This document shows, piece after piece, positions 3,325 through 23,328 of a DNA stretch of 64,000 nucleotides (the stretch's first letter is position 1; every line of letters starts with the position of its first letter). The notes beneath the pieces were generated by a model. The model was not told the DNA's origin. It saw only the letters and a list, made by a program, of their open reading frames with translations, and searched no databases. Position numbers and translations under genes: made by a program. The stretch lies in assembly GCA_027023425.1 (NCBI GenBank), contig JALVVL010000007.1, positions 89,205 through 153,204 on the forward strand. The letters are read 5' to 3'. The DNA comes from Anaerolineales bacterium. GTDB taxonomy: Bacteria > Chloroflexota > Anaerolineae > Anaerolineales > DRMV01.

Positions 3325-5525
3325 GGTTTTGGAGTTTCCGTTGGCGGGGTGCCGGTGGGTTTGGGCGTGGCGGTAACGCCAATTTGGGCTTCCCACGGGT
3401 AAAGGGCTAACGGCCGCCCGTAGAAGTAATCTTCAATCACGCGGCGCACAATCGGCGCGGCCACGTCTGCTCCCTCGCCGCCGTATTCCACCACCACTGC
3501 AACCGCGATGTCGGGTTTGTCTTCTTTTTGGGCGTCGGTGAATGCAGTAAACCACGCGTGCGGCTTTCCGGCGGCGGTGCTGGCCGTGCCGGTTTTGCCG
3601 TAAATTGGTATGCCGAAGTTGATGAAGCGCCAATAGGCCGTGCCGCGCGGGCTTGAAACCACCAATCCCATCCCTTTGCGGATGATGGCGAGGTTTTCGG
3701 GGCTGACAGGCAGTTTGCCGCGCACTTCGGGTTTGAATTGATGGAACACCTTGCCCTCAGGCGAAACCACTTTTTCAATGATGTGAGGCACGTACAGCGT
3801 GCCGCCGTTGCCCACCGCGGCGATGTAATCGGCAACTTGGAGCGGCGTCACCAAGGTCGTGCCCTGCCCAATCGCCTGCTGGACGGCTTCGCGCTCGTTG
3901 GTCGGGTCGGTTATTTGCCCTGCCTCGTCGCCGATTTCTATGCCCGTGGGCGAGCCAAGCCCGAAGCCGCGCGCCATCTGCGCCACGGCGTTGTATTTGT
4001 AGTTTTTGTAGAGGTCAAGCCCGATGTGCCAAAAGTAGGGGTTGCACGAGCGCATCAGGCCTTCTGGCAGGTTGAGTTTGCCGCTTGGCGGGAAGCCGTG
4101 GTCGTAGGTCCAGTCGTAAAGCGTCAGGCCGGGGATTTCGGTGAATTTGTAGCCGCAGTTGTAAATTGTATCTTCTTTGAAGCGTCCACTTTCCAGCGCC
4201 GCGGCCATGGTGATGATTTTGAAGATTGAGCCGGGTGGATAGAGCCCGTGGGTGGCGCGGTTTAGGAGGGGTTTGGCGGGGTTGTTGAGTTGTTGCAAGA
4301 GCGCCGCGCTGTTGAAGTTTGCCGATTCAAAGGCGTTGGGGTCAAAGCCGGGGGAAGAAACCAGCGCGAGCACGCGGCCGGTGTCGCGTTCAAGCACCAC
4401 CACCGCGCCAACAAAGCCGCTGATGGCTTCTTGCGCCTGAATTTGCAGTTTGCGGTCAATGGTGGTGTAAATTGTGTCGGAAGGTTTGCTCTCGCCCGCG
4501 GCGAGTTGGCTCACGATGTTGCCTTTGGAATCCACCACGTAGAGCCTGCCGCCGTTTTTACCGGCGAGATATTTTTCTCCCCAGCGCTCCACGCCCATTC
4601 GCCCTATTTTTTGGTCAAGCCGGTAGCCTTTGCGGCGGTATTCGGCCACTTCGTCGGGCTGGAGGGCGCTGACATAGCCTACGCCGTGCGGAGAGACGCC
4701 TTCATGGTAGTAAAAACGTCCGCTGTAGCGGCGGAGCACAATGCCCGAATAGCCCGCAAGGGCTTTGTAGTATTTGTCGGCCACATCGGCGGAAACTTCG
4801 GCAATGGGTACATACCAGCCTGATGGGGCGTTGTTGATTTTTGCACGGATTGCCGAGGGGCTTAGCCCCGTGACGCGCCACAGCAGGTTCACCAAGTCAT
4901 CAACCTTGTCCTTGTCCAACTGCGCGGGGAAAAGCCCGATTGAGAGGGCTTGGGTTTGGGTGGCGATTACTTTGCCGTCTCGGTCTAAAATTTCGCCGCG
5001 GGCGGGCACTTGCAATTCCATAGCGAGTTTGTAGCCACCGTGCAGTTCGGGCAAAATTAGGGCTTCATCCCACTGGACGCGCCACGCTCCTTTCTCCAAA
5101 CTTAGGTTCATCACAGTATCGCGGGAAATGTCGCCCACGACTGCACTGTGCAGGGTTACGGAATAGGCAACCTGCGCGGTGTGCGGTTTGACCAGCGAAG
5201 ACTTGATGGCGTAATCCACACCTTGCAGGGCGGCGTTTTCGGCCACGTCTTCGTAGTATTCGGCAAATTTTTTCTCGCTGATGGCATCTTTGCTGACTGA
5301 GGTGAGCAAGCCGTACATGGTTGGGTAGTCGTTCTTTTGCCACGCCTGCAAGTAAGCCTCGGCCACTGCCTTTGGGTCGGGCACATGGGTGGTAATCACC
5401 TGTGGCGAGGGTAGTGATGGAGTCTTTGCGGGCGCGGTGGTGGAGGTGGGCGCGGGGTTGCATCCGCCCAGCCACGCGGCCAAGAAAATTATCAACAATA
5501 GGTTTTGCCAGCGAAAGCGGTGCAT
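3321..5525 (-). CDS. Class B penicillin-binding protein (transpeptidase) with NTF2/MecA_N-like N-terminal domain; lipoprotein signal
   Basis: SxxK (SIFK), SxN (SCN) and KTG(T) motifs in order. N-terminal AVAEAYLQAWQKNDY... resembles the NTF2-like domain of PBP2a-type proteins. Start set at MHRFRWQNLLLIIFLAAWLGGC (lipobox LGGC) with GGAG 5 nt upstream. Confidence 0.85.
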   Translation of the reverse strand: MHRFRWQNLLLIIFLAAWLGGCNPAPTSTTAPAKTPSLPSPQVITTHVPDPKAVAEAYLQAWQKNDYPTMYGLLTSVSKDAISEKKFAEYYEDVAENAALQGVDYAIKSSLVKPHTAQVAYSVTLHSAVVGDISRDTVMNLSLEKGAWRVQWDEALILPELHGGYKLAMELQVPARGEILDRDGKVIATQTQALSIGLFPAQLDKDKVDDLVNLLWRVTGLSPSAIRAKINNAPSGWYVPIAEVSADVADKYYKALAGYSGIVLRRYSGRFYYHEGVSPHGVGYVSALQPDEVAEYRRKGYRLDQKIGRMGVERWGEKYLAGKNGGRLYVVDSKGNIVSQLAAGESKPSDTIYTTIDRKLQIQAQEAISGFVGAVVVLERDTGRVLALVSSPGFDPNAFESANFNSAALLQQLNNPAKPLLNRATHGLYPPGSIFKIITMAAALESGRFKEDTIYNCGYKFTEIPGLTLYDWTYDHGFPPSGKLNLPEGLMRSCNPYFWHIGLDLYKNYKYNAVAQMARGFGLGSPTGIEIGDEAGQITDPTNEREAVQQAIGQGTTLVTPLQVADYIAAVGNGGTLYVPHIIEKVVSPEGKVFHQFKPEVRGKLPVSPENLAIIRKGMGLVVSSPRGTAYWRFINFGIPIYGKTGTASTAAGKPHAWFTAFTDAQKEDKPDIAVAVVVEYGGEGADVAAPIVRRVIEDYFYGRPLALYPWEAQIGVTATPKPTGTPPTETPKP

Positions 5526-5717
5526 AGCAACTCCAAAATTTGGAGGGCTTTTTTGCAGGTGTGGGGGCGCTAAAGCGCGGTTTCCCAATTGTACCCCAAA
5601 CCGGTGGATGGGTTTGGGGGCTGGAGTTGTTTCCTCCTCCCTCTGCCGCGGCTGCCGAGTTGCCCCAAACGTGCTACAATAAACGCGCCAAAAGCAAAAC
5701 CCAATCGGAGGTTTCCC

Positions 5718-6965
5718 ATGAGCGAGCCTGACTGTCTCTCCATACTTGATGTTCCTCGCATCCGTGCCGATTTTCCTGTGCTGGGGCGGGAAGTCCGCCC
5801 GGGCGTTCCGCTGGTTTACCTTGATTCAACGGCAACCAGCCAAAAGCCCAAGCAGGTGCTGGATGTGCTCACGAATTTTTACCGCGCTCATAACGCCAAT
5901 GTGCACCGCGGCATCTACACTTTGGCCGAAGAGGCCACCGCGGCTTACGAAGAGGCGCGCGCCAAAGTCGCCGCTTTCATTGGCGCTTCTTCTCCCGAAG
6001 AAATCGTGTTCGTCCGCAACGCCACCGAGGCTATCAACCTTGTTGCCTATTCTTGGGGGCGGGCTAACCTGAAGGAAGGCGACCTCGTTTTGCTCACCGA
6101 ACTGGAGCACCATGCCAACCTTGTGCCGTGGCAGATGCTGGCCGCCGAGCGCGGCATACGGCTGGAATTTGTGCCGGTGACGCCCGACGGCGCTTTGGAT
6201 ATGGAAGCCCTGCCCGAATTGCTGGCTTTGGAGCCGAAATTGGTTGCCGTAAGCGGCATGTCCAATGTGACAGGGTTTCAGCCTGATGTGAAGTCAATAG
6301 CCCGCGCCGCCCACGATGCCGGTGCGCTGGTGTTGGTGGACGGCGCGCAACTTGTGCCCCATGCCCCTGTGGATGTGCAGGAATTGGGTGTTGATTTCCT
6401 TGGCTTTTCGTCCCATAAAATGCTCGGCCCAACGGGTGTGGGCGTGCTCTATGCCCGCCGCGACCTGCTGGAGGCAATGCCGCCCTTCCTCGGCGGCGGC
6501 GATATGATCCGCTGGGTGAAATTGCGTGAATTTGCTACCAACGATATTCCCTACAAGTTTGAGGCCGGTACGCCGCCGATTGCCGAGGCAGTGGCTTTGG
6601 GCGCGGCGGTGGACTATTTGCGCTCCATCGGCATGGAAAAAATTCACGCCTACGAGCAGGCTTTGGCAGAGTATGTGCTGCCGCGCCTCCAAGAAGTCCC
6701 CGGCTTGCACGTGCTCGGCACGACGCTTGAGCGCCGCGGGGCGGTTTTCTCTTTCTGGATGGACGATATTCACGCCCATGATGTTTCGCAAGTGCTGGAC
6801 TACTACGGGATTGCGGTGCGCGCCGGCCACCACTGCGCTCAGCCGCTTCACACCAAGTTTGGCGTAACTGCCACCGCGCGCGCCAGTTTCTACATCTACA
6901 ACACCCCCGACGAAGCCGACCGCCTTATCGCCGCGCTTTACAAGGTGAAGGAAAAGTTTGGGTAA
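5718..6965 (+). CDS. sufS: Cysteine desulfurase, SufS type
   Basis: PLP-lysine motif SSHKMLGPTGVG and catalytic-cysteine loop RAGHHCAQP. Start at the ATG at 5718 preceded by GGAGG. Followed by sufU. Confidence 0.9.
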   Translation: MSEPDCLSILDVPRIRADFPVLGREVRPGVPLVYLDSTATSQKPKQVLDVLTNFYRAHNANVHRGIYTLAEEATAAYEEARAKVAAFIGASSPEEIVFVRNATEAINLVAYSWGRANLKEGDLVLLTELEHHANLVPWQMLAAERGIRLEFVPVTPDGALDMEALPELLALEPKLVAVSGMSNVTGFQPDVKSIARAAHDAGALVLVDGAQLVPHAPVDVQELGVDFLGFSSHKMLGPTGVGVLYARRDLLEAMPPFLGGGDMIRWVKLREFATNDIPYKFEAGTPPIAEAVALGAAVDYLRSIGMEKIHAYEQALAEYVLPRLQEVPGLHVLGTTLERRGAVFSFWMDDIHAHDVSQVLDYYGIAVRAGHHCAQPLHTKFGVTATARASFYIYNTPDEADRLIAALYKVKEKFG

Positions 6966-7394: not shown

Positions 7395-7445
7395 TCCACC
7401 TTGATTGTTGATTTAGGTCTTTTGCAACTTAGCATCCAAATTTTT

Positions 7446-7576
7446 GATCTCTCCCTACCCCCGCTACGGCGACGCTATCGCGTCACCGTAGCCGCCCCCT
7501 TCCCTCCATTACTAAGGGAGGGAAGGGGGCAGATGAGCCGAGCGCCAGCGAGGCTCATCGGGGGATAGGTGAGATC
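7446..7576. repeat. Family B nested multi-hairpin palindromic element, copy 1
   Basis: Closing inverted repeat GATCTCTCCCTACCCCCG / CGGGGGATAGGTGAGATC encloses three hairpins. These are CTACGGCGACGC..GCGTCACCGTAG, GCCCCCTTCCCTCC-attacta-GGAGGGAAGGGGGC and GATGAGCC..GGCTCATC. Homologous copies at 11840-11904, 22039-22142 and 52459-52586. Confidence 0.85.
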
Positions 7577-12827: not shown

Positions 12828-13768
12828 GGGAGACGGGTTAGCCTTCCCGTCAGCCCGCCGCCTTCGGTAGGTTGCTCCACAACTACTGCTATCCCGTCCA
12901 GAGCGTAGCGGCGTTGGACTACGGCCAAAGCATGCGGCGGTTCGCCCAAGACCCGCGCGGCTGAGGTTATGCGCCCAATGTGCCGTTCGCCGAGCCGGAC
13001 TGAGGCGGGCGGTTCTATGGGGCTTTCAAGTGCCACTCCCACAAGAGCGCCCCCGCGGTCTTTGTGGCGGCTTTCGTTGACCAAAATTGCTTTCCCCGCA
13101 AAGTTGGGCTTGTCAAAAGTTACCATTTCTTCCAAGCCCACCTCAAAGGGGGAAAACTCGGGGGTCAGTTCCGTGCCGGGGCCCGGTATGCCGCGGCGGA
13201 TGCGCTCGGCTTCAAACGAAACATCGTCCAGCCATTGGGCTTGCATCATCACCATCACGGTGACGCCGCGCGGCTGCAGGAGCAACAGGCCGCCGCCCAG
13301 CACAGATGGCAAAGCCACGGCCGCCGAGCGGTTTTGGAAACGTTGCACATACCCTGCCCGAGGCGGCATTTCTAAGCCCCCGGGCGGCGCCTCCTCTCCC
13401 GGAAGCAAAACGGCCACATCCCAGCCATTGGTTTCATCGGCAAGGGAGACGTCGTATTTTGGGGGCGCTTGCCGCAAATTCGCAAGCGGTTCTCCTTTGG
13501 CGGGAGGGAAGGCTTTGTTGTGCAGGTGCTTTAGCGTGGCCTCGGCGTAGCCGTTTTGGGTGATGAGGATAAGCGAATCTTGGTCTTCTATCACGGTGAG
13601 CAAGTCTAAAATTCTGCCCGCCGCGTTTGTGAGGACGGTGAAAACGGCTTGCTCAGCGGAAACTTGGCTGAGGTCGTTTGTGGTCAGTTCCTGCAAGAAT
13701 TTGTATCGGTCGGCTCCGGCAAGGCGAAAGACCCCAACTGCGCCGTAACGATAGTAGAACCAAGGCAT
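12806..13768 (-). CDS. Folate-binding GcvT/YgfZ-family protein
   Basis: The N-terminal G..R..G.DR..FLQ...TND pattern and overall size fit the YgfZ/aminomethyltransferase-like fold. It lies next to the folate-dependent trmFO. 22-nt overlap with fabL. Confidence 0.6.
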   Translation of the reverse strand: MPWFYYRYGAVGVFRLAGADRYKFLQELTTNDLSQVSAEQAVFTVLTNAAGRILDLLTVIEDQDSLILITQNGYAEATLKHLHNKAFPPAKGEPLANLRQAPPKYDVSLADETNGWDVAVLLPGEEAPPGGLEMPPRAGYVQRFQNRSAAVALPSVLGGGLLLLQPRGVTVMVMMQAQWLDDVSFEAERIRRGIPGPGTELTPEFSPFEVGLEEMVTFDKPNFAGKAILVNESRHKDRGGALVGVALESPIEPPASVRLGERHIGRITSAARVLGEPPHALAVVQRRYALDGIAVVVEQPTEGGGLTGRLTRLPWQKERD

Positions 13769-13798
13769 TTTTGCCTCCGGGTGGGTGGCAGGAGTGGG

Positions 13799-15160
13799 TT
13801 ATGGCTCGGGAATCGTTTGCAAAAATTCGTCAAGCGCTGTGCGCGCCCTCTGCGCGTAGGCCGCGTAGCGTTCGCGCTTGTTGCGGATGCGGCGCGGCAG
13901 CGGCGGCAGTATGCCGTAGTTGGCTTTCATGGGCTGGAAATCGGCTTCGGATGCGTGGGTGATGTAGTGGCATAGAGCGCCGAGCATGGTTTCGCGCGGC
14001 AAAACGAGTGGTTGCTTGCCCTGCAAGAAACGGGCGGCGTTCCAGCCCGCGAGCAATCCGGTTGCGATATTGCCCACATACCCTTCCACGCCGGTTATCT
14101 GACCGGCAAAGAAGAGGTCGGGACGGGTGCGGAATTGGAGTGTTGGAAGGAGAAGTGCGGGGGAAAAGATGAAAGTGTTGCGGTGCATTTGCCCAAAGCG
14201 GGCAAATTCGGCGTTTTCAAGGCCGGGGATGAGCCGAAAAACCCGTTTTTGCTCGCCGAATTTGAGGTTGGTTTGGAAGCCAACCATGTTGTACAGGGTG
14301 CCTGCGAGGTTATCTTGCCGCAATTGTACTACAGCGTAGGGGCGTTTGCCGGTGCGGGGGTCGGTAAGCCCCACCGGCCGGAGGGGGCCGAAGGCCAAGG
14401 CGTCGCGGCCGCGACGCGCCAGCACTTCTATGGGAAGGCACCCTTCAAAGAATTTGCCTTTGCCCGCGCGCACGCCGTGCTCCCCTTCCAAAATTGGCTT
14501 TTCAAAGTCGTGGAGTTCAATCCGCTCAGCGTTCACCAGCGCTTCCACAAACCGTTCGTATTCTTCGCGGTTCATTGGGCAGTTGATGTAGTCGCCCTCT
14601 TCGCCGCCGCGGCCGTAGCGCGAGGCGCGGAAGCACACTTCCATGTTGATGGAATCTGCCACCACGATGGGGGCGATTGCGTCGTAGAAGTAAAGGTGTT
14701 CAAAGCCGGTGAGTTTTTCAAGGGCGCGCGACAACCGCGGCGAAGTGAGAGGGCCGGTTGCAATTATTGCCGGTTTTTCGGGGATCGCGGTAACTTCCTC
14801 GCGGCGGATTTCAATGTTGGGGTGGTTTTGCAGGGCGTTGGTGACGCGCTCCGCGAATTGCTCCCTATCCACAGCCAATGCGCCGCCTGCGGGCACTGCT
14901 ACCTCCTCGGCAATGCGCAGGAGCAGCGAGCCCATGCGCCGTAGTTCGTGTTTCAGCACGCCTGCGGCTCTGTCGGGTAGGTTTGAGCCAAGTGAGTTTG
15001 AGCACACCAATTCAGCGAGGCGGTCGGTTGTGTGCGCACCTGTAGAAACGCGCGGCCGCATTTCATACAGCACAACCTTCACGCCGCGCTCGGCCGCTTG
15101 CCACGCGGCTTCACTTCCGGCAAGCCCTCCTCCAACCACTACCAACTCGGGTTTGCTCAT
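13799..15160 (-). CDS. trmFO: Methylenetetrahydrofolate--tRNA-(uracil54-C5)-methyltransferase TrmFO (Gid)
   Basis: FAD-binding [18 protein letters not shown]. Full-length colinearity with the TrmFO family (..LVCSNSL.., ..[12 protein letters not shown]..). Confidence 0.9.
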
Positions 15161-15259: not shown

Positions 15260-15288
15260 TCGGCAACCTAAGCCGAAAATGGTATACT
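15260..15288 (+). promoter_or_regulatory. Putative sigma-70-type promoter with extended -10
   Basis: TCGGCA (15260-15265), 17-nt spacer (the extended -10 TG at 15280-15281 lies inside it), TATACT (15283-15288). About 80 nt upstream of the SBP start. Sequence-pattern inference only. Confidence 0.3.
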
Positions 15289-15368
15289 TGCCCACCGAAC
15301 ACCTTGTTAGGCCGACAAAATGGCCTTCAAACGGAATTTTGCATCTAACCCAACAGAGGAGAAAGCCC

Positions 15369-17417
15369 ATGCGCCGTCTTTGGGTACTTATTGTGAGCGT
15401 TGCTCTCATGGCTATGCTGGCGGCTTGCGGAAGCAAATCTGCACCTACAGCCGCCCCCACGGCCGTCCCTAAGCCAACGGCAACGCCGAAAATTGTGCTG
15501 ATAACCCCTACGCCGGCACCTACTAAGCCGCCGCGCGTGCTCACCATCTGCCTCGGGCGCGAGCCGCATTCCCTTTACCCCCTCGCTGGAGAAACCCGCC
15601 CCATGCGCGCCGTGCTTTCTGCGGTTTACGATGGGCCTATTGAGTTTCGTACTTTTGGCTTCCAGCCCGTGATTTTGGAAAAGTTGCCCAACGTGGCCGA
15701 TGGCGATGCCAAAATTGCCGAGGTTGAAGTGAACCCCGGACAGAAAATCGTGGATGCGCGCGGCAACATTGCTGTGTTGCAGGAGGGAGTTTCCTTCTTG
15801 CCCGCGGGTTGCCACACAACCCGTTGTGCCCTCAAATACACCGCTGATATGGGCACAATCACCATGGAGCAGTTACAGGTCACATTCCACCTGCTCCCCG
15901 GCCTGAAATGGTCGGACGGCAAGCCGCTGACTGCTTCCGATTCGGTGTTTACCTATCGCCTTGTTTCCTCGCCCGACACGCCTGCCCACGGGCGTTACAT
16001 CAACCGCCTGCGCCACACCGCTTCTTACACTGCCGCAAACGACACCACGGTAGTCTGGAAGGGGCTCCCCGGCTACCGCGACCCGACTTACTACCTCAAC
16101 TTTTGGATGCCGCTGCCAGAGCACTTGTGGGGCAAATATGAGCCCAAAGAGTTGGTGAGCGCGCCGGAATCTTCTCGCAAGCCGGTGGGCTGGGGCCCGT
16201 ATGTGATAGAAAACTGGCAAAAGGGGAAGGAAATCCGCCTGCGCCGCAACCCGTACTACTTCCGCACCCCCGAAGGGCTGCCGAAGTTTGACTACCTCGT
16301 CTTCCGCTTTGTGCAAAGCCCTCAGCAGGCGCTTTCTGACTTGCAAAGCGGCAAGTGTGATGTGGTGGATGAGAGCGTAGACTTGCTTTCGGTTTCCAAG
16401 CAAGCCGATGCTTTAGCCAAAAGAGGCAAAATAAATTTACTCTACGCTCAGAGCACAGATTTTGAGCGGTTAGACCTTGGCATCAGGCCGGTGAGTTACG
16501 ACGATGGCTGGCAGCAGACCGACCGCCCCAGTTTCTTTGATGATGTTCGGGTAAGGCAGGCTTTGGCTTACTGCTTGGATCGCGAAAAAGCGGTGAAAGA
16601 AGTTTGGGAAGGCCATGCGGAGGTTATGGATTCGTATGTGCCGAGCGAAAGCCCGCTTTTTAACCCCAAAGTGCAGAAGTATTCCTACGACCCCGATAAA
16701 GGCGCGGCCCTTCTCAAAACCGCCGGCTGGGTGGACGACGACAGCGACCCGACGACGCCGCGCGTTTACCGCGGCGAACCGGCAAACATCCCTTGGGGGG
16801 CTAAACTTGTGCTAAACTATTGGGCTCCCGATACACCGCGGGAGGCAAAGGCGGCGCAGATTTTCCAGCAATCGGCTGCGGCTTGTGGCATTCAACTAAA
16901 GGTAAAACTTTGGAAACCGAGCGAACTTTATGCCCCTGCTCCGAAAGGGCCGGTCTACGGGCGTAAATTTGACATAGCCGTGATACCTATGCGCATGACC
17001 GTGAACCCGCCATGCCACCTGTGGATGAGAGACGCCATCCCCGGCGACAGCACTCTTACCGTCAAAGACGTGCCTTGGCTGCTCAAAATTTTCGGCAAAA
17101 CCGCAGAGGATGAAAAAGCCTTTCCGATGGGTTGGGCTGGTTGGAACGATACGGCTTACGTCAACACCGATTTGGATGGCTATTGCCGCGCCGCAAACAA
17201 CAGCCTGCCGGACGATAAAATTTACAAAACCGCCCACCTCAAGGCGCAGGAAATTATTGCCAAGGGCGTTCCTTCAATCATGCTCTACCGCCGTCCTCGC
17301 GTGGCGGCAACCCGCCCCGATTTCTGCGGGTTTGTTTTAGACCCCAGCACATCTTCCGACCTTTGGAACATTGAAAACTACGATTACGGCAAACAGTGTT
17401 CCGCCCCCAACAAATAA
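15369..17417 (+). CDS. ABC transporter substrate-binding lipoprotein, family 5 (peptide/nickel type)
   Basis: Start set at MRRLWVLIVSVALMAMLAACG (lipobox) with GGAGAA upstream. Length and motifs (..W.DG.P.TA.D..F......YY.F....) are typical of SBP_bac_5. No permease or ATPase genes are adjacent. Confidence 0.8.
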   Translation: MRRLWVLIVSVALMAMLAACGSKSAPTAAPTAVPKPTATPKIVLITPTPAPTKPPRVLTICLGREPHSLYPLAGETRPMRAVLSAVYDGPIEFRTFGFQPVILEKLPNVADGDAKIAEVEVNPGQKIVDARGNIAVLQEGVSFLPAGCHTTRCALKYTADMGTITMEQLQVTFHLLPGLKWSDGKPLTASDSVFTYRLVSSPDTPAHGRYINRLRHTASYTAANDTTVVWKGLPGYRDPTYYLNFWMPLPEHLWGKYEPKELVSAPESSRKPVGWGPYVIENWQKGKEIRLRRNPYYFRTPEGLPKFDYLVFRFVQSPQQALSDLQSGKCDVVDESVDLLSVSKQADALAKRGKINLLYAQSTDFERLDLGIRPVSYDDGWQQTDRPSFFDDVRVRQALAYCLDREKAVKEVWEGHAEVMDSYVPSESPLFNPKVQKYSYDPDKGAALLKTAGWVDDDSDPTTPRVYRGEPANIPWGAKLVLNYWAPDTPREAKAAQIFQQSAAACGIQLKVKLWKPSELYAPAPKGPVYGRKFDIAVIPMRMTVNPPCHLWMRDAIPGDSTLTVKDVPWLLKIFGKTAEDEKAFPMGWAGWNDTAYVNTDLDGYCRAANNSLPDDKIYKTAHLKAQEIIAKGVPSIMLYRRPRVAATRPDFCGFVLDPSTSSDLWNIENYDYGKQCSAPNK

Positions 17418-17427
17418 CGAGGTGATC

Positions 17428-19410
17428 ATGGAAAACAAACAAAAAGCAGATTGGCTGTTCACGAATGCCATTGTGCTCGCGATGGATGAAGAAATGCACA
17501 TTTACGAACCCGGCGCCGTTGCCGTGAGCGGCAACACCATCGTTGGCGTGGGTGCTCAAAGCGAACTGGAAAAGCGGTTTTCTGCCGAGCACAAATTTGA
17601 CTGCGGCGGCAAGGTGCTCATGCCCGGGCTGGTCAATGCCCACACGCATGTGCCGATGACCCTGCTGCGCGGCCTTGCCGATGACCTGCGGCTTGATGTG
17701 TGGCTGTTGGGCTACATTATGCCGGTGGAGCGCGAATTCGTCTCGCCCGAATTTGTGCGGCTTGGCACTTCGCTCGCCGCGGCGGAGTTAATCCGCTCGG
17801 GTGTTACGGCGTTTGCCGATATGTATTACTTTGAGGAAGATGTGGCGCGCGCCACCTCAGATGCTGGTTTGCGCGCCCTCGCCGCCGAGACCATCCTCAA
17901 ATTCCCCTCGCCCGATGCCTCATCCTACGAGGAGGCGCTTGAATACACGCGTGACTTCGTCCGCCGCTGGAAGGGGCACCCGCTGATCGTGCCCGGCGTT
18001 GCCCCGCACGCCCCTTACACCATCACCGAAGAAATCACCCGTGCTTCGGTGGAGATTGCCACCGAGTTTGACGTCCCCATTCACATTCACCTTGCCGAGA
18101 CCGCGCAGGAAGTGGAAGACATCCGCGAAGAGGCTGGCATTCCGGTTATCCCTTACATGAAGGAGCAAGGGCTGTTTGAGGCAAAAGTGCTTGCCGCCCA
18201 CTGCGTTCACATTGACAAGGGCGAAATGCGCACGCTGAGGAAACACCACGCCGGCGTGGCGCACAACCCATCTTCCAACCTCAAACTGGCGGATGGCATA
18301 GCGCCGGTCGCAAAAATGCTGGAAGAGGGCTTGATGGTAGGCATCGGCACAGATGGGCCTTCCTCCAACAACGACTTGGATATGTTTGAGGAAGTGCGGC
18401 TCACTGCACTGCTTGCAAAGGGCTACACCGGTGACCCAACGGTTGTGCCCGCGAAACAGGCTTTGGCGATGGCAACGCGCATCGGCGCGCAAGCCCTACA
18501 CATGGGCGAAATCACCGGCTCGCTGGAAGAAGGCAAGCGCGCCGACCTAATTCTGGTTGACATTTCGCCGGTTCACAACTCCCCCCGTTTCCGTCGCGAC
18601 CCCGATGGCATTTACGCGCAACTGGTTTACGCCGCCAAATCTACCGACGTTACCGACGTGATGGTTGACGGGCGCTGGCTTATGCGCGACCGCAAACTCT
18701 TGACGGTGGATGAAGAGGCTCTCCTTGCCGAAGCGGATAGTTACGCCCGCCGTGTAGATTCGTTCCTAATCAAGCGCGAGCGATCGGTGCTTTCCAAGTT
18801 GGTGGCGATAGAAAGCGCCGCTGAGGCTGAAAGTTTTGAGGTGCAGGTGAAAGTGCCGCTTGAAGACCCCGACGCCGCGGCGCAGGCGGTTGAAAATTGC
18901 AAGGACATTGAAATCATTTACCGCCGCCACTATCGTGAATACGATACCTACATGGCATTTGCCGACCCCTCGCAGGGCTATTTGCGCTACCGCGAGGACG
19001 AGTTCATAGAGCCGGATGGGAGCGTGTCGCGCGTCCGCTATCGCCTCACGCTCATTGGCCCTGCGCATGAAGATTCGCTCCCCGGTGCGGTGTTGCTTTC
19101 GCGTAGTCGTTACCTCGCCCCCGCCACGCACAGCCTGCGGTTTTACCGCGAATACTTCCAGCCGGTCAAAGAATTTACGCTTGAAAAAGACCGCCTGCGC
19201 TGGAAGATAAAGTTTGAGGATACCGAGTTTTTCATCAACATTGACCGCTTCACCAAGCCGCCGCTTGGCGCGTTCTTGGAGGTCAAAAGCCGCACTTGGA
19301 GCCGCCGTGACGCCGAGCATAAAGCCGCGCTGGTCAGCCGCCTGCTTGAAAAACTCGGCATCGGTACCGAAAAGGCTATTGAAAAGGATTACATCGCTTT
19401 GGTGCAGTAG
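17428..19410 (+). CDS. Fusion protein: MtaD-like amidohydrolase (5'-methylthioadenosine/S-adenosylhomocysteine deaminase family) + C-terminal CyaB-like CYTH domain
   Basis: N-terminal ~445 aa: metal ligands LMPGLVNAHTHVPM, HIHLAET, AAHCVH, IGTDG. The C-terminal ~200 aa (from about nt 18830) is colinear with class IV adenylyl cyclase/CYTH: FEVQVKV (ExExK-like), Y.DTY, YLRYRED, YRLTLIGP, FFINIDRF....LGAFLEVKS, ...LLEKLGI. GAGGTG lies 4 nt before the ATG at 17428. Confidence 0.8.
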   Translation: MENKQKADWLFTNAIVLAMDEEMHIYEPGAVAVSGNTIVGVGAQSELEKRFSAEHKFDCGGKVLMPGLVNAHTHVPMTLLRGLADDLRLDVWLLGYIMPVEREFVSPEFVRLGTSLAAAELIRSGVTAFADMYYFEEDVARATSDAGLRALAAETILKFPSPDASSYEEALEYTRDFVRRWKGHPLIVPGVAPHAPYTITEEITRASVEIATEFDVPIHIHLAETAQEVEDIREEAGIPVIPYMKEQGLFEAKVLAAHCVHIDKGEMRTLRKHHAGVAHNPSSNLKLADGIAPVAKMLEEGLMVGIGTDGPSSNNDLDMFEEVRLTALLAKGYTGDPTVVPAKQALAMATRIGAQALHMGEITGSLEEGKRADLILVDISPVHNSPRFRRDPDGIYAQLVYAAKSTDVTDVMVDGRWLMRDRKLLTVDEEALLAEADSYARRVDSFLIKRERSVLSKLVAIESAAEAESFEVQVKVPLEDPDAAAQAVENCKDIEIIYRRHYREYDTYMAFADPSQGYLRYREDEFIEPDGSVSRVRYRLTLIGPAHEDSLPGAVLLSRSRYLAPATHSLRFYREYFQPVKEFTLEKDRLRWKIKFEDTEFFINIDRFTKPPLGAFLEVKSRTWSRRDAEHKAALVSRLLEKLGIGTEKAIEKDYIALVQ

Positions 19411-19500: not shown

Positions 19501-19630
19501 TCTACGCGGTTGCTGGTAGAAGAGCGCGTTTTCGTGTCATGGCGAGCCGCCATAGGCGGCGAAGCCATCCCCCAGACAGTGGGGGAAACCGCCTCGCAGC
19601 GACATGAAGCAGGAGAACTGCGTAACTCCT
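19501..19630. repeat. Family C palindromic element, copy with internal hairpin deleted
   Basis: TCTACGCGGTTGCTGGTAGAAGAGCGC...GTCATGGCGAGCCGCCATAGGCGGCGAAGCCATCCCCCAGACAGTGGGGG...GACATGAAG...AACTGCGTAACTCCT. Colinear with 39421-39570 (inverted) but lacks the GTCGTAGACCGCCGAAGCGGTCTC hairpin. Confidence 0.8.
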
Positions 19631-19665
19631 AAAGGTATAGGCTTTCAAAACTGAGCGGAGAACGC

Positions 19666-19875
19666 ATGATGAACACAGTTACAATTTCCCTTACAGATGC
19701 ACAATGGAAGAAACTGCAAGATAAGGCTCAGCGGATGGGCATTGCTCCTGAAATGCTGTTGGTGGCTACATTGGAAGACTTGCTTGTGCGTCCAGAAGAA
19801 GATTTCCGGCGAACGGTGGAGTATGTAGTGCAAAAGAATGCTGAGCTCTATCGTCGCTTGTCTGCAGGGGCTTAA
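19666..19875 (+). CDS. Ribbon-helix-helix antitoxin (Phd/CopG-like), partner of doc
   Basis: 69 aa. The N-terminal beta-strand-plus-helices pattern (TVTISLTDAQWKKLQDKAQRMGI) is typical of RHH antitoxins. It ends 6 nt before the doc start. Confidence 0.6.
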   Translation: MMNTVTISLTDAQWKKLQDKAQRMGIAPEMLLVATLEDLLVRPEEDFRRTVEYVVQKNAELYRRLSAGA

Positions 19876-19881
19876 TATCGT

Positions 19882-20286
19882 ATGCCAACCCGCTACCTGG
19901 CCCTGAGCGAGGTGCTATTCCTCTATCAACGCGTAATGGATTTCGGCGGTGGGGAAGAAGGCATCCGAGATTTGGGTGCATTGCAATCTGCTCTGGCACA
20001 GCCGCGGATGACCTACGGCGGCGAAGAGTTGTATCCGAGTTTAGCGGAGAAAGCGGGGGCGCTCGCATATAGTTTGGTGAAGAATCACCCCTTTGTAGAC
20101 GGGAACAAGCGCATTGCGCACGCGGCAATGGAAGTGTTTTTGGTGCTGAACGGTTATGAATTGCAAGCATAAGTCAAAGAGCAATAAGAAGTAATGAGAG
20201 CCATTGCCTCTGGGATGATGAACCGGCGCACATTGGTAAAGTGGATTGAAACCCACATGGTCAAAACCAAAACGAAGGGCAAGTAG
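19882..20286 (+). pseudogene. doc: doc (Fic-family death-on-curing toxin) interrupted by two in-frame TAA codons
   Basis: Fic motif [14 protein letters not shown] is present. The same reading frame continues ...NGYELQA*VKEQ*EVMRAIASGMMNRRTLVKWIETHMVKTKTKGK*, with TAA at 20170-20172 and 20185-20187. The downstream peptide looks like a normal Doc C-terminus. Confidence 0.75.
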
Positions 20287-22685: not shown

Positions 22686-23126
22686 TTACTTCTCAATAAA
22701 TGGGTTCCGAATTTCAAGATAGCCCTCAACCATCAACCCGTGTTGCATGTCCTCAGAATACAACACACCTGCCCCGCTGCTCAAAGCAGCCGCTACGATG
22801 GTGCTGTCCCAAAAGGAAAGGGAATATCGCTGGCGTAATTGGGACGCCAATAACAAGACCGCTTTGGAGAGTTCTTTCACGGGGTACCGCTTATAAAACG
22901 CCTCAATCAGATTACTGATCTGCTCCTCAGTAAAGTTCGCCTGACGCAGCAAATTGACGCATACTTCATTGATAACTTGGGTGCTAACAATGGCGTCATT
23001 CTCCCGAATCAATTTTCGGGCAATCGCCGACTTTCTGGCGTTTTCTCCGTTGCTCTCATTCTCAAGGAAAGCATAAAGCCAGATGTTTGTGTCAACGAAA
23101 CATGCGTTGTCAGGCTCATTCGGCAT
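22686..23126 (-). CDS. vapC: PIN-domain ribonuclease toxin (VapC-like)
   Basis: 146 aa. N-terminal FVDTNIWLYAF carries the first PIN acidic residue and acidic residues follow later. Overlaps the upstream small gene by 11 nt. Confidence 0.75.
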   Translation of the reverse strand: MPNEPDNACFVDTNIWLYAFLENESNGENARKSAIARKLIRENDAIVSTQVINEVCVNLLRQANFTEEQISNLIEAFYKRYPVKELSKAVLLLASQLRQRYSLSFWDSTIVAAALSSGAGVLYSEDMQHGLMVEGYLEIRNPFIEK

Positions 23127-23328
23127 AAATTTCCTCCCTGCTCAACGGATGAAATCCTTTCACCTGCACAGGATGGCGGAGTAGGTGGTCTATGAAATCA
23201 CTTTCTCGCTTTGACTTCTCTTCAATCAGCACAATAACGCGCACCTGCCGGGCGATTTTGCCGCGGTACTGACGAGGAATTTCAATCTTGCCGTCTTTGA
23301 CTTTTGCCTGAAATTCTATTGTTTTCAT
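23116..23328 (-). CDS. Antitoxin (AbrB/SpoVT-like swapped-hairpin type), VapB-like
   Basis: MKTIEFQAKVKDGKIEIPRQYRGKI... resembles the looped-hinge-helix DNA-binding fold. Start moved to the ATG at 23328 with AGGAG upstream. Confidence 0.55.
   Translation of the reverse strand: MKTIEFQAKVKDGKIEIPRQYRGKIARQVRVIVLIEEKSKRESDFIDHLLRHPVQVKGFHPLSREEIYAE

Follow-up and report, generated by a model that had tools for sequence, protein, structure and literature searches.

A predicted MtaD-group deaminase fused to a variant CYTH domain, fixed across the Anaerolineae

Introduction

Why does a nucleoside deaminase carry at its C-terminus a tunnel domain of the kind that handles triphosphates, and what could this domain do there? 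The question is raised by one gene, located at positions 17428-19410 of a 64,000-nucleotide stretch of an Anaerolineales genome (GenBank assembly GCA_027023425.1, contig JALVVL010000007.1, positions 89,205 to 153,204), to which we refer as the window. A first-pass annotation of this DNA described the gene product as a complete MtaD-type amidohydrolase of about 445 amino acids (aa) with all metal motifs, followed by about 200 aa of a "CyaB-like" CYTH domain. It called the combination an unusual fusion that is not known to have been described. Our analysis supports this interpretation as essentially correct. The gene encodes one polypeptide, which consists of an intact Zn-type nucleoside deaminase, a helical linker of approximately 20 residues and a complete β-barrel of the CYTH/triphosphate tunnel metalloenzyme (TTM) type. 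The fusion is fixed across the Anaerolineae. According to our alignments, the residues that hold a triphosphate in the tunnel are retained throughout the family, while substitutions affect three residues of the two-metal centre.

In digesters, sediments and soils, Anaerolineae are a dominant group about which little is understood. The physiological roles of CYTH/TTM domains, which are ancient and ubiquitous, are largely unknown (PMC8233210).

Gene, Start Site and Sequence Sets

An open frame without internal stop codon extends over 17371-19410 of the forward (+) strand, on which all features of the fusion gene reported below are located. Translation starts at the ATG at 17428, and the coding sequence 17428-19410, with its stop codon at 19408-19410, yields a product of 660 aa. 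The start follows from a Shine-Dalgarno-like site, from a public gene call and from the aligned N-termini of the orthologues. The Shine-Dalgarno-like motif, GAGGTGA, was read from the sequence at 17419-17425, 2 nt before the ATG, and immediately before it lies the TAA stop codon (17415-17417) of an upstream solute-binding-protein gene. The public call is an identical 660-aa protein with the same start, found in the metagenome assembly ENA ERZ23491667 (scaffold_78). On the minus strand, the open reading frames (ORFs) which overlap the fusion gene are shadow ORFs of the kind typical of coding DNA rich in G+C.

Two sets of relatives were used. A scan of one genome per species with the C-terminal domain provided 80 loci that were fetched, and the species-level conservation set comprises 72 orthologues; counts out of 72 refer to this set. 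The divergent set consists of 23 sequences at 25-60% identity.

The Deaminase Half

The N-terminal domain (residues 1-445; 17428-18762) is a metal-dependent deaminase of the TM0936/MtaD type, built as a (β/α)8 barrel with a composite β-sandwich. Pfam Amidohydro_1 matches residues 63-417 with E = 6e-73. The top sequence match in the PDB is 4f0r, a deaminase of methylthioadenosine (MTA) and S-adenosylhomocysteine (SAH), with E = 3.5e-93 over residues 16-443 of the query and 15-436 of the chain of 447. In good agreement with this, Foldseek aligned the full-length model to 3lnp, 4f0r, 4dzh, 4dyk and 4gbd, the last with methylthio-coformycin bound, at template modelling scores (TM-scores) to target of 0.92-0.94. 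A family profile containing several full-length members matched only amidohydrolases in the PDB.

The set of amidohydrolase residues, i.e., HxH, an extra histidine, HxxE and an aspartate within a (β/α)8 barrel, is complete in the window protein. The HxH metal-ligand motif is H72-T-H74 (17641-17649), aligned to HGH of 4f0r. The HxxE motif, comprising a metal-ligand histidine and the catalytic glutamate, is H221-L-A-E224 (18088-18099), aligned to HIHE of 4f0r. The conserved active-site histidine is H258 (18199-18201), and the metal-ligand aspartate is D309 (18352-18354) within GIGTDG. All six residues are found in 72/72 orthologues. The amidohydrolase part of the first-pass annotation is thus borne out by the Pfam match, the match to 4f0r, the Foldseek alignments and these residues.

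By fold and catalytic residues the domain belongs to the TM0936/MtaD deaminase group, and the corresponding activity is predicted. No NCBIfam equivalog cutoff was reached by the window protein: it scored 455.6 against a cutoff of 540 for PRK09045, 344.7 against 522 for PRK07228 (5'-deoxyadenosine deaminase), and 305.9 against 779 for PRK15493 (MTA/SAH deaminase). We therefore file it as a deaminase of this group without assigning an exact substrate. Two further residues, W92 and E101, are found in 72/72 orthologues at offsets +18 and +27 from HxH. They may correspond to the stacking tryptophan W75 and the ribose-binding glutamate E84 of TM0936 (in the numbering of Hermann et al. 2007), which would have the same offsets.

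Cv1032 (4f0r), PA3170 (4dyk/4gbd), the Xcc enzyme (4dzh), OLEI01672 (3lnp) and TM0936 (1p1m) were compared with the domain, and the Foldseek alignments give 37-40% identity across the full deaminase length. The solved or characterised MTA/SAH deaminases of this group end at approximately 400-470 aa and none has a CYTH domain, whereas the window protein adds one.

Two loops of the deaminase show a predicted local distance difference test (pLDDT) value below 50 in the full-length model, residues 85-94 (17680-17709) and residues 311-315 (18358-18372). They correspond to DDLRLDVW after HxH and to PSSNN after GTDG, and may be mobile elements of a substrate lid.

Identity of the C-Terminal Domain

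The C-terminal domain (residues 466-660; 18823-19407) has eight β-strands plus helices. It is connected to the last amidohydrolase helix by a helical linker (residues 446-465; 18763-18822), which leads into strand β1 of the CYTH domain. In the full-length AlphaFold2 model, this region holds helices 429-450 and 454-462 at pLDDT 57-68; across species the linker shows a mean pairwise identity of 70%.

On its own, the C-terminal part of the window protein (215 aa) gave no Pfam match at E <= 10 and no sequence match in the PDB. Neither the family profile of the domain nor the relative with the best Pfam score found anything among the PDB sequences. Using hhalign, the family profile reached a probability of 1.9% against the single YgiF sequence, and its global mode (-glob) returned alignments of 3-4 residues against YgiF and the human thiamine triphosphatase (ThTPase); these results were not used. 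A 50-residue SaTTM fragment used as query yielded no candidate of the SaTTM cluster. The domain is too divergent for pairwise and profile-to-sequence methods, and its identity was therefore settled by Pfam matches of orthologues and by fold search.

A search with the C-terminal 215 aa found 1,618 relatives. On their own sequence, 16 of 36 close relatives match the Pfam family PF01928 (CYTH), several of them above the gathering cutoff. The best one matches with E = 9e-8 and 32.6 bits, compared to a cutoff of 23.2 bits, over profile positions 2-176 of 179. The AlphaFold2 model of the domain, for which the alignment of relatives was used (pLDDT 89.7, predicted TM-score (pTM) 0.85), has eight long strands plus helices, and Foldseek aligned it to CYTH/TTM structures with E = 3.6e-9 to 1e-7, a probability of 1.00 and TM-scores to target of 0.70-0.74. 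The best match is the Sulfolobus TTM, SaTTM (7ns9; E = 3.6e-9, TM-score to target 0.73). Further matches at approximately 1e-9 to 1e-8 are the class IV adenylyl cyclase (AC-IV) of Yersinia, YpAC-IV (3n0z, 2fjt), and PH1819 (2een); Pfu-838710, ThTPase and AtTTM3 were also found. The top 25 matches (E = 3.6e-9 to 1e-5) are all CYTH/TTM structures, except for Mediator Med8C/18 at rank 19.

Membership of the CYTH superfamily is solid at the level of the predicted fold and of the family-level hidden Markov model. CYTH similarity is hence present at family and structure level, though the window copy alone has no Pfam match. The motifs cited by the first-pass annotation coincide with CYTH strands: FEVQVKV with β1, YLRYRED with the xRxR motif, YRLTLIGP with β4, FINID with β7 and LGAFLEVKS with β8.

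Spread and Fixation of the Fusion

The C-terminal domain is encoded in at least 586 of the genomes scanned at one per species. The 80 loci listed are almost all from Anaerolineae/Chloroflexota, plus one metagenome-assembled genome (MAG) of the Calditrichia; a MAG assigned to Anaerolinea thermophila (locus L031) is among the carriers of the fusion. The domain lies within the deaminase gene in all 80 loci. In 72 of them, the two domains share one continuous frame of 640 aa or more from stop to stop, and in nearly all of these 72 long ORFs the HxH motif lies approximately 545 residues upstream of EVKSRTWS. Among the loci with short ORFs, two contain frameshifts in long-read MAGs, one is cut by a contig end, and one could be aligned over residues 5-660 in a single frame. 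In a search with the full-length protein, the best 120 matches cover 95-100% and are all 645-675 aa long. In the Anaerolineae, the fusion is fixed.

In a search with the C-terminal domain only, all of the 120 matches listed were shorter than 375 aa. The seven of them that we read were gene calls from an internal methionine or with a start in mid-sequence, or fragments at contig ends. A split-gene or truncated architecture was considered and rejected: the seven short entries read are pieces of the same fused protein, for which the full-length search gives 645-675 aa.

A profile search with the domain retrieved only 331 relatives among 1.84 billion representative proteins. Six matches were read among the best 150 of these 331, and all of them carry amidohydrolase sequence or start inside the C-terminal helix of the amidohydrolase; among these six we saw no stand-alone form of the tunnel variant. 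Many others of the best 150 are short partial matches.

The source names of the relatives are "amidohydrolase" or "MTA/SAH deaminase" only, with no mention of CYTH. No PDB entry spanning both domains was found by Foldseek with the full-length model, and literature on CYTH together with amidohydrolase, deaminase, Anaerolineae or MtaD gave no description of the fusion. The deaminase-CYTH architecture is a new domain combination, common yet unnamed and unstudied. The label "unusual" of the first-pass annotation therefore stands in the sense of uncharacterised; it does not stand in the sense of rare, since the fusion is the norm in Anaerolineae and occurs in at least 586 species genomes. That the combination is undescribed is in agreement with the database names and the literature. 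Published fusion partners of CYTH domains are HD, exopolyphosphatase, nucleotidyl kinase, CHAD and PRK (PMC8233210). YgiF (CYTH-CHAD), plant TTM1/2 (kinase-CYTH) and the HD and exopolyphosphatase fusions use CYTH as a module, as does the window protein. An amidohydrolase deaminase is not on the published partner list, and in the window protein the CYTH domain is C-terminal.

Some irregular copies were noted. In the two frameshifted loci, L027 (~4668-5108 and 5104-6642) and L065 (~4683-5009 and 4969-6642), both from long-read MFD MAGs, the gene is split between frames 3 and 1 inside the N-terminal domain; a homopolymer indel error is most likely, rather than a real pseudogene. In locus L050, a second, isolated copy of CYTH residues 603-644 (about 42 residues, 64% identity) is found at 7408-7533, where the locus ends, approximately 770 nt downstream of the full gene. 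This copy may have arisen by partial duplication, or a paralogue may begin here that is truncated by the contig end. Furthermore, short alternative gene calls for this family are numerous in public collections, and counts of architectures could be distorted by them.

Tunnel Residues, Kept and Replaced

Motif definitions were taken from Vogt et al. 2021 (PMC8233210) and Martinez et al. 2015 (PMC4641920). In the ExExK motif of SaTTM, E5 binds metal 2 (M2), E7 binds metal 1 (M1), and K9 follows; E135 is the central M1 ligand, and E137 binds, together with E5, M2, which positions and activates the attacking water (PMC8233210). DxY places the β-water, and an F/Y pair holds the plug helix (PMC8233210). 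The first arginine of xRxR, equivalent to R56 of YgiF, is catalytic (PMC8233210, PMC4641920). The β4 lysine, K69 in YgiF and K76 in AtTTM3, orients the first glutamate toward metal 2, and TTM hydrolases are impaired when it is mutated; the exchanges E6A and E160A in YgiF or of E2, E4 and E169 to Asp or Ala in AtTTM3 reduce activity (PMC4641920).

To map the residues, the family was aligned to YgiF, human ThTPase and a SaTTM fragment by MAFFT L-INS-i without supervision, and the alignment was combined with these published roles. The canonical motifs of YgiF, ThTPase and SaTTM fall into invariant columns of the family. YgiF β8 is misaligned (its EVKAGEF is placed on EVKSRTW by coincidence, the real motif ELELE lying further on), and the ExE mapping comes from GEVE of ThTPase alone.

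On β1, the family has E471-V-Q473-V-K475 (18838-18852) in 72/72 orthologues, i.e., ExQxK in place of ExExK (canonical EIELK/EVERK). Q473 takes the place of the metal-1 ligand, E7 in SaTTM and E6 in YgiF; in the divergent set this position is Gln in 22 sequences and Arg in one, never Glu. The DxY motif, D506-T-Y508 (18943-18951), is aligned to D38-I-Y40 of SaTTM and is invariant in both sets. The xRxR motif is Y518-L-R520-Y-R522 (18979-18993), corresponding to ALRLR in SaTTM, GLRIR in YgiF and WLRRR in ThTPase. R520 and R522 occur in 72/72 orthologues, and position 518 is variable (R 21, Y 16, T 6, Q 6 and others in the species-level set). On β4, R537-Y-R539-L-T-L-I543 (19036-19056), the canonical TYKGP/TMKV is aligned to T-L-I543-G-P. 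The canonical lysine, K69 in YgiF and TYK in SaTTM, is replaced by Ile at 543, a position that is I, L, V or T in the family and never K in either set. R537 and R539 are extra arginines on the same face of β4.

Basic tunnel residues follow on β5, R559-S-R561 (19102-19110; 72/72), and on β6, where K587-D-R589-L-R591 (19186-19200; 72/72) forms a K.R motif aligned to KRSAW of ThTPase and YREKW of YgiF. R520, R522, K587, R589, D506 and Y508 are invariant in both sets, and R591 is found in 72/72 and in 21 of the 23 divergent sequences. β7 carries N604-I-D606 (19237-19245; 72/72), aligned to IALD of YgiF and VDLD of ThTPase. β8 carries F616-L-E618-V-K620-S-R622 (19273-19293; 72/72), aligned to GEVE of ThTPase, so that ExE becomes ExK. 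In this mapping, E618 is the central metal-1 glutamate (E135 in SaTTM, E157 in ThTPase), F616 is F133 of SaTTM, and K620 replaces the metal-2 glutamate (E137 in SaTTM, E159 in ThTPase). In the divergent set the position of K620 is Lys in 22 sequences and Gln in one, never Glu. Finally, Y655 (19390-19392) of the C-terminal plug helix is invariant in both sets. As judged from its position, it is the counterpart of Y168 of SaTTM; the full-length model has a helix at 655-659.

The mapping indicates that the triphosphate-holding parts are kept, i.e., K475, R520, R522, K587, R589, R591, DxY, E618 and the F616/Y655 pair. It likewise indicates a family-wide replacement of three residues of the two-metal centre, by Q473, K620 and Ile/Leu/Val at position 543. 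Additional invariant arginines in the tunnel are R537, R539, R559, R561 and R622. According to strand alternation, the conserved tunnel-facing residues would comprise about 13 basic and 6 acidic ones. Both domains are under strong purifying selection, with 24.5% invariant columns in the C-terminal domain and 18.8% in the N-terminal domain across the 72 orthologues.

The CYTH hallmark ExExK is ExQxK in 72/72 orthologues, and of the features of two-metal TTM triphosphatases, ExE on β8 (here ExK) and the β4 lysine are missing. The conserved aromatic residue of W/YxRxR which stacks on the thiazole ring in ThTPases corresponds to Y518 in the window protein, at a position that varies in the family. 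As to class IV cyclases, there is no HF four residues before ExExK (positions 465/466 are T/M/S/E/A and E/Q), R520 is present in 72/72 instead of a small residue, and position 620 is Lys instead of Ala. With these hallmarks lacking, the domain does not count as a canonical member of the TTM triphosphatases, the ThTPases or AC-IV. As a motif pattern, ExQxK…ExK marks a distinct CYTH subfamily and provides a simple recognition rule for it, useful for thousands of entries named "amidohydrolase" or "MTA/SAH deaminase", whose names omit a conserved domain of 200 residues. The first-pass annotation had noticed ExQ in place of ExE and suspected an altered CYTH part. Gln is indeed found in all 72 orthologues, and the alteration goes further than noted, including ExK on β8 and the hydrophobic position on β4.

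SaTTM (Saci_0718, 7ns8/7ns9) and the SaTTM/YpCyaB parental cluster, which is made up of single-domain CYTH proteins including PH1819 (2een) and Pfu-838710 (1yem), represent the best fold match. SaTTM and the window domain share the eight-strand tunnel, the plug helix, DxY, both xRxR arginines, the F/Y aromatic pair, the first Glu and the Lys of ExExK, and the first Glu of ExE. They differ in that E7 is Gln, E137 is Lys and the β4 Lys is Ile in the window domain, to which extra arginines are added. With its approximately 180 aa, SaTTM stands alone and is active as a two-metal triphosphatase, whereas the window domain is fused C-terminally to a deaminase of 445 aa. CyaB/YpAC-IV (2fjt/3n0z) has the same fold, and both it and the window domain lack the second Glu of ExE on β8. 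However, the AC-IV features HFxxxxExExK, a small residue for the first xRxR arginine and Ala at ExE are all absent from the window domain. "CyaB-like" consequently holds at superfamily level and not at the level of class IV cyclases. TTM1/2 lack ExExK and ExE and in this are partly like the window CYTH domain, but the ExQxK/ExK pattern differs from those described.

Possible Function

What could such a tunnel do for a deaminase? With about evenly balanced confidence, and on the basis of the residue pattern, we favour a polyanion-binding module for triphosphate, polyphosphate or nucleotide which is dedicated to the deaminase and probably regulatory. As the metal-2 site is removed and a lysine is placed there, the domain is most likely not a canonical hydrolase or cyclase, and two-metal γ-phosphate hydrolysis or cyclisation would most likely be lost. 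The basic tunnel would probably bind a polyanionic phosphate, e.g., tripolyphosphate, short polyphosphate, a nucleoside tri- or tetraphosphate or an alarmone. Its function is probably tied to the deaminase, since the tunnel variant was seen only fused to it. The CYTH tunnel might then be an allosteric or occupancy sensor through which the deamination of by-products of S-adenosylmethionine (SAM) use (MTA, SAH, 5'-deoxyadenosine, adenosine) is coupled to the phosphate or energy state of the cell.

Several points weigh against this proposal. No contact surface of the two domains is predicted with confidence in the full-length model (pTM 0.72, linker pLDDT 57-68), which therefore gives no structural support for allostery, and the gene context offers no regulatory clue. 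A Gln can still coordinate Mg2+, and a Lys could serve as general base or substitute for the charge of a metal. The invariance of E471, Q473, E618, K620 and D606 would fit a catalytic site just as well as a binding site. Inactivity also does not follow from missing canonical motifs: AtTTM1/2, which lack ExExK and ExE, show pyrophosphatase activity in vitro; AC-IV enzymes without the second Glu of ExE are still cyclases, and Vtc4p without metal site 2 is still a polymerase (PMC8233210, PMC4641920). Moreover, the residue mapping was made from sequence alignment and motif order.

The strongest competitor, which we consider rather unlikely, is a bifunctional enzyme. Here the CYTH domain would be a working phosphohydrolase of a modified, one-metal or lysine-assisted type, acting, e.g., on tripolyphosphate, pyrophosphate, a nucleoside triphosphate or a nucleoside tetraphosphate, and the fusion would let two steps of adenine-nucleoside or phosphate metabolism run together. 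This is consistent with the retention and invariance of the substrate-binding residues, the M1 glutamate, the catalytic first arginine R520 and DxY, with the very high conservation of the altered residues, with the motif-deficient but active TTMs cited above (AtTTM1/2, AC-IV, Vtc4p) and with the proposal that CYTH proteins operate where nucleotide and phosphate metabolism meet (PMC8233210). On the other hand, mutation of the residues equivalent to Q473 and K620, even from Glu to Asp, strongly impairs every TTM hydrolase tested (PMC4641920), and glutamates of the E135/E137 type are described as required (PMC8233210). Here, three residues of the M2 centre are altered together. A stand-alone tunnel variant, which a Rosetta-stone fusion would usually have, was not seen among the six matches read from the best 150 of 331, and phosphate-metabolism genes are not conserved nearby.

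A purely structural role is improbable. The domain would be a decayed CYTH barrel which scaffolds or oligomerises deaminase assemblies without a ligand. The catalytic metal centre is disrupted in agreement with such decay, and non-catalytic CYTH-like barrels exist in Mediator Med18/Med20, which are among the fold matches. However, in a decayed domain one would not expect about 13 basic residues facing the tunnel, along with DxY, E618 and the aromatic residues of the plug helix, to be invariant in 72 species, nor a fraction of invariant columns above that of the catalytic domain.

Very improbable is a class IV (CyaB-type) cyclase which produces cAMP from ATP, with the N-terminal domain acting on cAMP or adenosine derived from it. 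YpAC-IV structures (3n0z, 2fjt, 3n10) are among the top fold matches with E of about 1e-8, and the second Glu of ExE on β8 is missing as in AC-IV. But all three AC-IV signatures of PMC8233210 fail: without HF, with the first arginine kept and with Lys instead of Ala on β8, the domain is not a class IV cyclase. The retained first arginine has been proposed to block ATP in the cyclase orientation, and the AC-IV cluster is small, with 141 bacterial orthologues whose carriers are mostly actual or potential pathogens (PMC8233210).

That two adjacent genes were merged by an assembly or sequencing error, or that the CYTH similarity arose by chance, has a practically negligible probability and is refuted, despite the missing Pfam and PDB matches of the window's own C-terminal sequence, by the same continuous ORF and conserved linker in independent assemblies of at least 72 species, by relatives that match CYTH above the cutoff and by the Foldseek probability of 1.00.

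We also put forward a bolder reading as a tentative possibility: a new functional class of TTM in which K620 sits permanently in the metal-2 site, acting either as a metal-independent allosteric sensor or as a lysine-for-metal catalyst. A sensor would mean that tripolyphosphate, polyphosphate or a nucleotide gates the salvage of SAM by-products, and it would be the first bacterial CYTH domain shown to be a regulatory ligand-binding module. A catalyst would represent a lysine-for-metal mechanism not yet seen in the CYTH superfamily. The family can be regarded as a natural experiment, in which the substrate-holding half of the tunnel was kept and the metal half rewritten, fixed in hundreds of species and joined to an enzyme whose chemistry is known. 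From the identity of its ligand one could learn what a CYTH tunnel senses or does in vivo, and a so far unrecognised control point in the recycling of SAM by-products in Anaerolineae would come to light.

Gene Neighbourhood

In the window, the neighbours of the fusion gene are a TrmFO/GidA-like gene, an SBP_bac_5 protein gene, a Fic/Doc gene and a class IV aminotransferase gene. The SBP_bac_5 gene, which encodes a family-5 extracellular solute-binding protein (15279-17417, +; E = 1.5e-61), ends 10 nt before the ATG of the fusion gene, which suggests co-transcription of both genes in this genome. This arrangement is not among the recurrent neighbour families of the other loci.

The only frequent upstream neighbour across the loci is a CinA-type gene (MoCF_biosynth E = 5e-38, approximately 385-410 aa). 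It precedes the fusion gene on the same strand, at a distance of about 45 bp, in 43 of 79 loci, e.g., in L025, and is absent from this window. It is a likely operon partner of the fusion gene in many Anaerolineae. Recurrent downstream genes are FGE-sulfatase-like (40 loci) and aldo/keto-reductase-like (26 loci), the latter named from sequence only. No phosphate, SAM or cyclic-nucleotide genes are conserved near the fusion gene across the loci. The link to tripolyphosphate released by SAM synthetase, which the first-pass annotation had proposed as speculation, thus finds no support in the gene context.

Just downstream of the fusion gene, a 96-aa ORF of the Fic/Doc family is located at 19882-20172 (+; Pfam Fic E = 2e-19), and public gene calls place ORFs of 40 aa and 69 aa before it (~19510-19875). 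This arrangement is probably a toxin-antitoxin pair of the Phd/Doc type. At ~22686-23328 of the minus (-) strand (13259-13901 of locus L082), a PIN-domain gene of 146 aa and an ORF of 70 aa share approximately 10 nt. This pair looks like a toxin-antitoxin module of the VapBC type and would be a second such system less than 4 kb from the first.

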